Shown here piece by piece: positions 2,117 to 21,571 of a DNA stretch of 35,335 nucleotides. The stretch spans positions 1 to 35,335 of the forward strand of contig JALVXW010000207.1 of the NCBI GenBank assembly GCA_027038155.1. Direction: 5' to 3'. This stretch comes from Sulfurovum sp. (GTDB lineage Bacteria; Campylobacterota; Campylobacteria; Campylobacterales; Sulfurovaceae). The stretch's first letter is position 1; every line of letters begins with the position of its first letter. Under the pieces are notes generated by a model, which was given only the letters and a program-made list of their open reading frames with translations, did not search any database and was not told the origin of the DNA. Both the position numbers and the translations under genes were made by a program.

Positions 2117-2137
2117 TATCCACCTTTAAAATATTTA

Positions 2138-2300
2138 GGGAGTCTCTAAAAATAGGTGATACCCACAACATCTCTAGCTTTTCTCTAGGCTAGGCATCTT
2201 TTTTAACCCTAGCCGTAGCTAAGGTAAAAAAGAGTAACAACGCATAGGGGAAAGCTAGAGATACCCAAAGGGTGGGTATTACCTATTATTAGAGGTTCCC
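2138..2300. mobile_element. MITE-like palindromic element, family A, copy 1 (163 bp)
   Basis: Imperfect terminal inverted repeats GGGAGTCTCTAAAAATAGGT / ACCTATTATTAGAGGTTCCC, flanked by a TTTA direct repeat (2134-2137 and 2301-2304). A homologous copy lies at 8093-8281. Confidence 0.88.
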
Positions 2301-2325
2301 TTTAAATAATTGTACCTCAACTGTC

Positions 2326-3882: not shown

Positions 3883-4941
3883 ATGCTATATGAACTCTCT
3901 AAACTTTTAGACATCAACCTCTTTGGGTACATCTCTGTACGTGCGGGTATTGCCTTTTTTATTGCATTTGTCTTCACACTTTTAATCATGCCAAAATATC
4001 TTGCATGGGCACTCTCAAAAAATGCCAACCAGCCCATCAGCAAATATGTACCTGCCCATGAAGGCAAACGCCATACCCCCACTATGGGAGGGGCTATCTT
4101 TCTTATTGCCACACTCATTGCCGCATTGGTTAGTGTTGATTTGACCAATCCCTACATTATAGGAGGCATCATTACCCTTATTGGGTTTGGATTTGTAGGA
4201 TTTAAAGATGATTTGGGCAAAGTACTCGCAGGAGACAACCTGGAGGGGTTAACCCCTAGAGGAAAGATGTTTCTTCAAGCACTGATTGCCTCACTTGCTA
4301 CTGGGCTTTTACTCTATTCTGGTTTCCCTACAGCGTTTTATGTACCGTTTCTCAAAACACCCCTGTTTGATTTAAGCTACTTTGCTATCCCCTTTTGGAT
4401 ACTCATCTTTCTTGCCACAACCAACGCAGTCAATCTTACCGATGGACTTGACGGATTGGCAACCGTTCCTTCTGTGATTGCTCTTTTTACCTTGGGGGCG
4501 ATTGTCTATATTACAGGACATGCTATCTTCTCTGAGTATCTTCTTGTACCCAACATCAAAGGGGTAGGAGAGGTGATGATACTCGCCGCTGCTCTTGCTG
4601 GAGGGCTTTTGGGGTTTCTTTGGTACAACGCCTACCCTGCCGAAGTCTTTATGGGTGACACAGGCAGTCTTGCTATTGGTGGATTTTTGGCCTATCTTGC
4701 CATACTGGGCAAAAGCGAAGTACTGCTTATTCTTATTGGTATTGTCTTTGTTATTGAGACAGTTTCGGTTATTTTACAGGTGGGCTCTTTTAAGCTACGT
4801 GAAAAACGTATCTTCAAAATGGCACCTATTCACCACCATTTTGAGCTTAAAGGGTGGGCAGAAAACAAGATTATTGTACGTTTTTGGATGATTGCTTTTA
4901 TTGCCAACATCTTAGCTCTTGTATCGTTTAAGTTTAGATAA
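3883..4941 (+). CDS. mraY: Phospho-N-acetylmuramoyl-pentapeptide transferase
   Basis: [28 protein letters not shown] and MAPIHHHFE motifs in a polytopic membrane protein. Confidence 0.97.
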
Positions 4942-4948
4942 AATCAAG

Positions 4949-4976
4949 GAGCAGTGAGCAGTGATCAGTGAGCAAC
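4949..4976 (+). repeat. 7-bp tandem repeat (GAGCAGT-like x4) spanning the murD SD and start
   Basis: GAGCAGT GAGCAGT GATCAGT GAGCAAC, with GTG triplets at 4954, 4961 and 4968. Confidence 0.75.
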
Positions 4977-6217
4977 AAAAACCAACACTATTTGGCTATG
5001 GCTTAACCACAAAAGCTATTGCCAAAAAATTGGGTGGAGGCTGTACTTTTTTTGATGACAAGTGCACTAAAACCTATACAGATGAGTACCATAACACTAT
5101 CAAACCCTCACATGCATTTGACCCCAATGAGAGCAACATGGAAATTACGACCCCTAGTTTGCCACCTAAACATCCACTTATTTTAAGTGCCAGAAATCTA
5201 ATGAGTGAGTATGATTACTTTTTAGGTAGGGTGGGCATTCCTGCCCACCAAAATATTTCTGGGCAGGAATGCCCACCCTACACCATCTGGATATCTGGCA
5301 CCAACGGTAAAACCACCACCACTCAAATGCTTACACACCTTCTTGAAAAAAGAGGGGCTATCAATGGAGGAAACATTGGCATACCTTTGGCAGATTTGGA
5401 CCCTAATGCACCTATATGGATACTTGAAACCAGCTCCTTTACGCTCCACCATACCCATAAAGCATCACCCAATATCTATCTTCTTCTTCCTATTACGCCA
5501 GACCATTTAGACTGGCATGGTACCCCCAAAGCCTATGAGAAAGATAAACTTAAACCTTTGCTTACCATGAAAGAAGGTGAACTTGCACTTGTACCCAAAG
5601 GGCTTACACTTCCACAAACAGATGCCTTTGTTGTTGAATATGATACCAATAGATTCTTATGCGACTACTTTGGATTAGAGAGCTCAAAACTCAACTACAA
5701 AGGTGCTTTTTTACAAGATGCTCTGCTCTCCTTAGCCATTACCAAAGTGCTGTTTGATGAAACCGATTATGACCTACTTAATACTTTTGAGCGTGACGCC
5801 CACAGACAAGAGGAGTTGTACGATGCAAAAGGGCGTCTTTGGGTCAATGACTCCAAAGCAACCAATCTTGATGCAACAATACAAGCACTCAAAGGCTATG
5901 CCAACAGATACATCCATCTCATACTTGGAGGCGACGACAAAGGTGTAGATTTGACCCCTCTTTTTGAAGAGATGAAACCCCTTAACCTTACACTTTATAC
6001 AATAGGTGCCAACAATGACAAACTCTTAGAGCTTGCCAAACACTACAAAATTAAAGCTAAAGAGGCAAAAAATATAGAAAGTGCTATCCATCACATAGAT
6101 AAAATCCTCTCTTCTAAAGATGTAGCCCTACTCTCACCAGCTGCTGCAAGTTTTGACCAATTCAAATCATACAAACATAGAGGCGAAACATTTATACATT
6201 TGGTTAAAAAGCTATAA
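4961..6217 (+). CDS. murD: UDP-N-acetylmuramoyl-L-alanine--D-glutamate ligase, carrying an in-frame palindromic insert
   Basis: P-loop ISGTNGKTTTT, GGNIG, ETSSF, PDHLDWH, VNDSKATN and LSPAAASFDQF; directly follows mraY. Confidence 0.96.
   Translation: MISEQQKPTLFGYGLTTKAIAKKLGGGCTFFDDKCTKTYTDEYHNTIKPSHAFDPNESNMEITTPSLPPKHPLILSARNLMSEYDYFLGRVGIPAHQNISGQECPPYTIWISGTNGKTTTTQMLTHLLEKRGAINGGNIGIPLADLDPNAPIWILETSSFTLHHTHKASPNIYLLLPITPDHLDWHGTPKAYEKDKLKPLLTMKEGELALVPKGLTLPQTDAFVVEYDTNRFLCDYFGLESSKLNYKGAFLQDALLSLAITKVLFDETDYDLLNTFERDAHRQEELYDAKGRLWVNDSKATNLDATIQALKGYANRYIHLILGGDDKGVDLTPLFEEMKPLNLTLYTIGANNDKLLELAKHYKIKAKEAKNIESAIHHIDKILSSKDVALLSPAAASFDQFKSYKHRGETFIHLVKKL
5226..5281. repeat. GTAG-type REP doublet (REPIN-like) inside murD
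   Basis: Perfect 22-bp inverted repeat GTAGGGTGGGCATTCCTGCCCA ... TGGGCAGGAATGCCCACCCTAC with a 12-bp spacer. Each arm is itself a GC-rich hairpin; the left arm is GGTGGGCA-TTCC-TGCCCACC. Confidence 0.88.
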
Positions 6218-6325: not shown

Positions 6326-6401
6326 GGCTCCATAGCTCAGTTGGTAGAGCAAAGGATTGAAAATCCTTGTGTCGGCGGTTCGATTCCGTCTGGCGCCACC
6401 A
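6326..6401 (+). tRNA. tRNA-Phe (GAA)
   Basis: 76-nt cloverleaf with D-arm GCTCAGTTGGTAGAGC, anticodon arm AAGGA-TTGAAAA-TCCTT, T-loop GTTCGATT and encoded CCA. Confidence 0.97.
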
Positions 6402-7969: not shown

Positions 7970-8092
7970 AAGCTTCCAATTTTATCTTTTTTTATATCTT
8001 ATTTTTTACCATAAGGCAAATTTGCCATAATTTGGATCAAAAAATAATGCGGAATAGAAAAATACCTGCCAAGATAGAATCTTATTACTACA

Positions 8093-8281
8093 GGGAACCT
8101 CTAAAAATAGGTGATACCCGCAACATCTCTAGCTTTTCTCTAGGGGCTAGGCACTCTTTTCTCAAAGAGAGTGCAAGCATAAGGCAACCCTAGCTGTAGC
8201 TAAGGTAAAAAAGAGTAATAACGCATAGAGGAAAGCTAGAGATGCCTAAAGGGTAGGTATTACCTATTTTTAGAGGTTCCC
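8093..8281. mobile_element. MITE-like palindromic element, family A, copy 2 (189 bp)
   Basis: Perfect 20-bp terminal inverted repeat GGGAACCTCTAAAAATAGGT / ACCTATTTTTAGAGGTTCCC, flanked by a TACA direct repeat (8089-8092 and 8282-8285). It has an extra internal hairpin (GCACTCT...AGAGTGC) compared with copy 1. Confidence 0.9.
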
Positions 8282-8356
8282 TACATAGTAAAATTGATAT
8301 ACAGCAAAACTTTCACCGTAAGACCAATACGCTAAAGATGTGATAATAATCACGCT

Positions 8357-16663: not shown

Positions 16664-16677
16664 ACTACTTTAGTTTA

Positions 16678-16841
16678 ACCCAAATTATGCAATAGAAATT
16701 ACCAAACTAGCAAAAGTCATTGTACCGTGGGCATTTACAAATAATCATCGATTAACCTAAGGGTTAACCTCAAATTCTTTGCAAACACCCACAGCACAAG
16801 CACTATCGCTAATTTTGGCAATCCTATTGCATAATTTGGGT
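16678..16841. mobile_element. MITE-like palindromic element, family B (164 bp)
   Basis: Perfect 18-bp terminal inverted repeat ACCCAAATTATGCAATAG / CTATTGCATAATTTGGGT, and the whole element is an imperfect palindrome. It is flanked by a TTA direct repeat (16675-16677 and 16842-16844). Confidence 0.82.
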
Positions 16842-17171
16842 TTAAGCAAAAATCCCATGCCTAGAACCTTCTAAAAATTCTAAAAGTAAAAAGAGTCCTA
16901 TGGTTACTATAGGTGAAAAAATTATCCACCAGTAGTACTTTTCTTTAAAGAGATACCACACTACACCAAACCATGCCAAAATAACTAACAATAGATGTGC
17001 GATATAAAGAGGAATAATTGACCGTGTTAAGTTACCTGCTACTGCCAAAGAGATAATTATGGTAAATGATGCCAGTGTAATAAGTAATTTTTTGGTGTTT
17101 TTGTCTCTAGTATATTTGAAAAAAATAGTAGCCATGGTTATAAGTATAGCTATGATTATTAGTGCTTTCAT
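16842..17171 (-). CDS. Hypothetical small membrane protein (about 4 TM segments)
   Basis: 109 aa with four hydrophobic stretches and an AAGGA SD; no recognisable family. Confidence 0.8.
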   Translation of the reverse strand: MKALIIIAILITMATIFFKYTRDKNTKKLLITLASFTIIISLAVAGNLTRSIIPLYIAHLLLVILAWFGVVWYLFKEKYYWWIIFSPIVTIGLFLLLEFLEGSRHGIFA

Positions 17172-21494: not shown

Positions 21495-21571
21495 TGGTAC
21501 ACCCTGCGAGATTCGAACTCACGACCTTCGGTACCGCAAACCGATGCTCTATCCAGCTGAGCTAAGAGTGC
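21495..21571 (-). tRNA. tRNA-Arg (GCG)
   Basis: The reverse complement folds as a 77-nt cloverleaf with anticodon arm TCGGT-TTGCGGT-ACCGA, T-loop GTTCGAAT and encoded CCA. Confidence 0.95.

Follow-up and report, generated by a model that had tools for sequence, protein, structure and literature searches.

Why does a palindromic repeat of a kind normally placed outside genes lie in frame within a cell-wall gene, and is the site itself peculiar? We examined these questions for a repeat doublet in murD, in a 35,335-nt stretch of Sulfurovum DNA (hereafter the window) that belongs to a metagenome-assembled genome, 76% complete (G000). The analysis points to a loop of MurD that is likely a site where mobile DNA can land and be tolerated; in the genus as a whole this loop is filled by many unrelated repeats, which is more unusual than the single insert. 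The features under discussion are the following.

3883..4941, + strand: upstream gene, which we take to be mraY from its sequence and position, not from a profile scan
4950..4975, + strand: heptamer array of the AGCAGTG type, about 3.7 units, at the junction of the upstream gene and murD; supplies a GTG start
4961..6217, + strand: murD, intact ORF, starting at GTG 4961 or a nearby GTG
5219..5284, + strand: hypervariable MurD loop, F87-T108, 22 aa in G000
5226..5281, no strand: REP doublet (REPIN-like), 22-bp arms and 12-bp spacer, coding in frame for MurD residues 89-107
5226..5249, + strand: left REP unit, GTAG head and 8-bp hairpin, the full 24-nt unit
5248..5259, no strand: AT-rich spacer, 12 nt
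5260..5281, - strand: right REP unit, inverted, shorter than the 24-nt unit by its last two bases; C5276T and A5280G fall within it
5297..5317, + strand: P-loop GTNGKTT (G113-T119), from a 40-row alignment

An in-frame repeat doublet in murD

The ORF at 4961-6217 matches the TIGR01087 murD model with 316 bits (cut-off 212) and is the only match in G000. As the earlier note had claimed, the element lies in frame inside this intact ORF and is a perfect inverted repeat: each arm (5226-5247, 5260-5281) is the exact reverse complement of the other, with 12 nt between them, and the doublet folds as DNA at -28.3 kcal/mol (z -10.4), a value equaled by 0/200 shuffles. The further suggestion that each arm is itself a hairpin holds for the left one, which with two spacer bases forms 8 bp (z -5.2), and is weaker for the right, which forms a hairpin of only 6 bp (z -2.3) that 7/200 shuffles equal. 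The element shows the GTAG head followed by a short GC-rich palindrome that defines GTAG REPs. At the gathering threshold, an Rfam scan of the window returned nothing at the doublet and two tRNAs only, at 6326-6398 (+) and 21498-21571 (-).

In MurD the doublet is translated as G89-RVGIPAHQNISGQECPP-Y107. The stretch from F87 to I111, between EYDYF and the P-loop, measures 23 aa in comparison with 9 aa in the short allele of relatives, close to the figure of roughly 10 first given for it. The net gain of the loop is 14 aa (42 bp), less than the 56-bp element; therefore, the REP replaced part of the loop, and the idea of an added peptide is right as to a longer loop and wrong as to a simple addition of 19 residues. 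The short loop aligns with E. coli MurD F98-P105; presuming domain limits of 1-93 and 94-298 in that enzyme, it stands at the start of domain 2, and both this alignment and the AlphaFold2 model agree with the position beside the domain 1-2 boundary proposed initially. The model, built on the 40-row alignment in which G113 and N115-T121 are invariant, has a mean pLDDT of 87.5 and the three-domain Mur ligase fold of solved MurD structures (Foldseek E 2e-27; PDB 2JFH, 5A5F, and 1E0D). Fold and catalytic motifs of the MurD ligase family (TIGR01087) are kept, and the departure lies in the segment matching E. coli F98-P105, 14 aa longer. The insert is placed between helix 83-88 and strand 107-112, the strand leading to the P-loop. 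Residues 91-103 have pLDDT below 50, in part because nearly all rows of the alignment are empty at these positions, and the REP-encoded insert is predicted to be disordered. Judging from the intact frame, the peptide would be present in the enzyme, probably without function.

Could the repeat have been mis-joined into murD during metagenome assembly? Among the contigs examined none holds the whole element with both flanks, and P2 contigs crossing the left junction reach 29-30 letters on its REP side, slightly short of the 31-letter bridging threshold. Yet three other studies (P2, P3, and P4) supply contigs that start at 5227-5229 and cross the spacer and the right junction, the left and right pieces overlap, and these overlapping pieces recur in other studies with substitutions of their own. 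No joints skipping the doublet are listed among the contigs of other runs, the murD frame is intact, and the MurD loop of a second genome, G120, also contains a member of this REP family. An artefact is hence scarcely credible. Where recorded, the habitat of the runs holding the sequence is hydrothermal-vent metagenomes, and no RNA run is listed among them; most of the named relatives, at 72-78% identity, bear the Sulfurovum label.

Two substitutions, C5276T and A5280G, occur in contigs of runs X3, X4, and X6 (three runs, two studies), yielding P106S and Y107C. Since strains carry these changes, residues encoded by the repeat are changeable, and the idea that REP-encoded P106-Y107 was co-opted in place of a conserved P-F is weakened. 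At the DNA level, A5280G alters the GTAG head of the right arm much as in other in-frame REPs; GCAG or CTAG replaces GTAG in several such copies (L002, L160, L183, L192, and L034), which could reflect age or else selection to keep the transposase from cutting genes that the cell needs.

The REP family and its transposases

Exact matches to the REP arm number 18 in G000, and 45 copies are found at up to two mismatches. A degenerate pattern search retrieved 69 arms in 50 loci, against 0 in one base-shuffled genome, and 19 of these loci, each 50-98 bp long, have two arms in the REPIN form, two inverted REPs around a variable spacer. These copies bear out the REP/REPIN identity that had been suggested from the single element. 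In their available text, PMC3733652, PMC4690160, and bioRxiv 10.1101/2021.07.10.451892 characterize GTAG REP/REPIN-RAYT systems by a GTAG head, GC-rich hairpin, inverted doublets, AT-rich spacers, and location chiefly at gene ends. Besides these traits, the family of G000 has in common with the systems so described the frequent use of TAG as a stop codon, supplied by at least 10 of its loci, and, in congeners, a REP-flanked transposase gene of the NF047646 type (REP-associated tyrosine transposase). Such genes in G010 (L199) and G079 (L200) score 148 and 150 bits (cut-off 80) and lie between inverted copies of the murD-type REP, exact on both sides at L199. The predicted RAYT association stands for congeners; in the 76%-complete G000, neither the PF01797 profile nor tblastn with congener RAYTs (best E 0.9) found a RAYT gene. 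None of the 30 top-scoring Y1_Tnp loci in the genus has a REP of the murD-type family close by; the family itself is present in 48/116 same-genus genomes.

By ORF overlap, 45/50 loci in G000 are not mid-ORF, the majority being at gene ends. REPINs are almost exclusively extragenic according to the accessible part of bioRxiv 10.1101/2021.07.10.451892, and from this description the assembly differs in its 5/50 mid-ORF loci, as well as in that no RAYT was found in it, at 76% completeness. The murD copy is therefore of an uncommon class, as first supposed, but not unique. All five mid-ORF copies are in frame and read x-R-V-G; they lie in MurD, an AmgK-like kinase (below cut-off), a RecB-like helicase, FolC, and an RHS-repeat protein. 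A sixth REP, right at the N-terminal end of an ORF in contig C147, may precede the true start. In other genomes, 4 of 75 distinct loci of the family are mid-ORF, namely MurD of G120, PriA in L369, and two ORFs without family match; the two credible ones, MurD and PriA, have the same peptide registers as those of G000. Mid-ORF copies are too few to tell frame selection from mechanism. The PriA copy, at L369:1321-1410 in G054, is a doublet, in frame.

Tolerance of the insertion sites finds support beyond MurD, as the REP sites of the AmgK-like protein and FolC are also length-variable in orthologues. The former measures 28 aa, compared with 8-10 aa in 26/28 orthologues and 26 aa of different sequence in the other 2; the latter varies widely in length among 29 aligned orthologues, with peptides that appear, at the peptide level, repeat-derived. 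FolC (L034, G000:C325; orthologues L232-L261) has in fact two length-variable sites, of which G000 has one filled by a REP arm and the second by an insert of 8 aa; at both positions, several orthologues contain inserts of their own. A MITE-like repeat of 170-200 bp, which ends in terminal inverted repeats and has palindromes inside, is found twice in the window (2132-2304 and 8089-8287) and gives 18 blastn matches of at least 150 bp and 41 end matches in G000; some REP copies adjoin its ends.

In-frame intragenic REPs of the GTAG or CGTC type, from Opitutus terrae, Thauera, Xanthomonas, and others, are already described in the available text of PMC3733652, both singly and as dimers, in genes for housekeeping and DNA repair, recB-type ones among them, with neutrality in linkers proposed. 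The single murD case is thus less surprising than the earlier note held, and the in-frame REPs in the RecB-like helicase of G000 and in PriA (L369) resemble the cases presented there. As far as that text goes, equivalent genes carry REPs at different sites, save recB in two Xanthomonas, whereas here one MurD site is filled in 40/98 genomes; the searchable supplements of PMC3733652 contain no Sulfurovum intragenic REP and no MurD. The accessible part of bioRxiv 10.1101/2024.10.14.618302 yielded nothing on insertion hotspots of this sort. The RPE, brought up earlier as the best-known analogue, is a palindromic repeat adding peptide within conserved proteins in the available portions of PMC3184786 and PMC3733652, and this is the sole trait in common. 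RPE-1, of ~105-146 bp in PMC3184786, a review of in-frame repeat fusions, is not known to have a GTAG or RAYT link, whereas the murD element is a 56-bp RAYT-type doublet at a site reused by unrelated repeats; by size it stands apart from RPE-1.

The MurD loop across the genus

From 116 genomes, 105 gave a MurD match, and 98 could be read once 4 fragments and 3 sequences unreadable at the loop were removed. A short loop of 8 aa, F-xxx-MPF-x, occurs in 52/98, all of the same form. The remaining 46/98 have an expanded loop of 9-48 aa, all in open frames, a uniformity which, only intact genes having been counted, is partly a product of how the loops were read. G117 has a one-base frameshift beside its short allele, unconnected with repeats. 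The fillings of the long loops are REP_A, the murD-type family, in 2 genomes (G000 and G120); a second, GTAG-type family, REP_B, in 6; a third, REP_C, in 4; heptamer arrays in 28, each with at most 3/200 shuffles as periodic; and unclassified short sequences in 6. REP families and heptamer arrays together account for 40/98 genomes at one MurD site. These repeats are also found elsewhere in their hosts: REP_B, which matches the Sulfurovum REP in Table II of the available text of PMC4690160, has 17-84 copies per genome in 5 genomes checked, and the TCTTCAC array is dispersed genome-wide in 3 checked loop-carrying hosts and absent from the short-loop G016. The CTCCTAC array is sparser, with control matches in G013.

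Despite this variety, long loops have a common frame of residues, with Leu at position 2 in 45/46 (vs 0/52 of the short ones), a final Thr in 43/46, and P-F or P-Y kept ahead of the strand in 45/46. Outgroups mostly display the short F-xxx-MPF-x loop; of the 9 genomes that represent other families, one (G027) has a repeat-like loop of 27 aa. A single in-frame REP is of a known kind; for recurrence at one site, by unrelated repeats and across a genus, and for a multi-family repeat hotspot in MurD, we found no report in a literature search that left most subscription papers outside. Since unrelated repeats have refilled the loop in roughly every second member of the genus, a natural replicate series is available for testing the neutrality of repeat peptides, the replacement of REP doublets, and the frequency of short recombination tracts between species, and the MurD loop offers a natural permissive site for up to 40 extra residues.

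Origin and probable exchange of loop alleles

A tree built from MurD without the loop (104 rows, with 3 short rows omitted; a single gene, with 32/101 inner branches weak) requires 15 changes between short and long states, 6 of these being forced by well-supported branches. Long alleles as one clade are rejected (p-AU 1.5e-90, in a 61-row subset of 41 long and 20/52 short alleles), and a single clade of the three REP_B alleles with a common spacer is not (p-AU 0.059). The scaffold common to long alleles (Leu at position 2) also makes it unlikely that they arose through wholly independent insertion into the short allele; allele exchange reconciles this scaffold with the non-monophyly of its carriers. 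One case is G079, 91% identical to the short-loop G055 outside the loop: around the loop it follows G018, which has the same loop allele, at 40/43 informative sites, compared with 34/212 elsewhere. None of 200 permutations gave as strong a tract, which starts ~90 nt inside murD and could have moved in either direction. On either side of the loop, G093, which has a short allele, shares 93-98% identity with the long-allele G092. Local identity excess is absent in most pairs with a common loop type.

For the loop of G000 no donor tract was found, the best local identity being 0.82. Its GTAG starts at the same base and in the same frame as that of G079, although the former is REP_A and the latter REP_B, and the start of the spacer is nearly identical: with the preceding CA, the spacer of G000 reads CACCAAAATAT, near the CACCAAAAATAT of the REP_B loop alleles in G078, G079, and G018. 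The tree sister of G000 is the REP_B-bearing G078 (SH-aLRT 95). The base preceding GTAG is T in 48/69 arms and G in the murD copy, AG occurring in 1/69; such an atypical G is what one would expect had the flank come from an older allele. We infer that the G000 allele overwrote an older long allele, probably of REP_B type.

We regard as probable that this in-frame GTAG REP doublet was placed by a RAYT in a near-neutral permissive loop, which mobile repeats fill, selection screens for frame, and recombination reshuffles. Cut-and-paste of single-stranded REP doublets by RAYT transposases is an established model, and a transposase of this type would have cut and pasted the doublet into the murD loop. 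The loop, in turn, would take almost any in-frame peptide, so different repeats would repeatedly fill it and replace its contents, and selection on a single-copy cell-wall gene would purge frameshifts and inserts elsewhere, leaving those of the loop. Once lengthened, it may act like intergenic space restricted to multiples of three and accept still more repeats. Finally, lineages would exchange long and short alleles through homologous recombination, with SEYDY and IWISGTNGK as the conserved flanks.

Several features of this record could be accommodated without much lateral exchange, by a single loop expansion in early Sulfurovum, inherited vertically, with repeats turning over inside and short alleles arising as independent reversions. 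The scaffold residues common to long alleles (Leu in 45/46, Thr in 43/46), the branching of heptamer alleles near the genus base, and the lack of a tract in most same-type pairs would then be expected. We nonetheless find it unlikely: all 52 short alleles have the one 8-aa form of most outgroups, and exact reversion by deletion is ruled against because residues missing from long alleles cannot be restored; the near identity of G093 and G092 on both loop sides and the G079/G018 tract over the loop speak for exchange as well. The inserts could also be adaptive, with a longer linker tuning how the domains of MurD move or how partners bind, or with the hairpin regulating the transcript of the cell-wall operon. 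The persistence of long loops in 46/98, the site immediately ahead of the P-loop strand, the very stable hairpin of the doublet, and the retained P-F or P-Y agree with such a role, which we hold to be quite improbable given that the fillings have no common sequence, range over 9-48 aa, and are in many cases heptamer arrays, not hairpins, that loop state differs between close relatives, and that a strain change turns P-Y into S-C and breaks the right arm.

It is also conceivable that long loops hitchhiked with mobile cassettes upstream of murD, composed of four-helix-bundle genes and heptamer arrays and spread by recombination through the 5' part of murD. In congeners the junction upstream of murD often has a four-helix-bundle gene or a heptamer remnant, and REP doublets are seen there too; in G000 it has a heptamer remnant. 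Genes of the TIGR02436 type occur in 25/28 heptamer-loop and 15/52 short-loop genomes, and directly upstream of murD in 10/26 resolved heptamer-loop vs 1/49 short-loop genomes, while non-plain junctions amount to 27/39 for long and 13/49 for short loops, with 9/97 junctions unread and the lengths of those of G065, G013, and G014 over-read. However, tests of loop state against junction or four-helix-bundle content on independent pairs (3-4 pairs only, p 0.5-1) give no support, hence kinship or general repeat load explains the raw table equally well, and the one mapped tract starts inside murD. Hitchhiking is, in our view, a doubtful account of the long loops, and we retain the permissive loop filled by mobile repeats.

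An extension of the permissive-loop model, possible yet tentative, would treat the loop as translated "intergenic space", with the cassette swapped whole between species and with RAYT-driven REPs and TIGR02436-tied heptamer arrays overwriting each other, the latter being an unrecognised gene-plus-repeat mobile unit akin to REP/RAYT. Heptamer arrays flank 19/30 TIGR02436 genes vs 17/418 control windows, and no link between the two was found in the literature, most subscription papers lying outside the search. The arrays around four-helix-bundle genes are, as a lead, a possible second mobile-repeat system. At L263:1493-1977, L280:1498-1886, and L376-L405, TIGR02436 genes lie between inverted heptamer arrays, as RAYT genes do between REPs; the L263 protein has a weak match to the model of the DGR protein Avd (E 5e-4). 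In G081, a CCA-adding-enzyme-like ORF carries two heptamer arrays in its reading frame (L265:1320-1532). Elsewhere in the window, at 16669-16850, a long imperfect inverted repeat with 89-nt arms, 73% complementary, lies between convergent ORFs.
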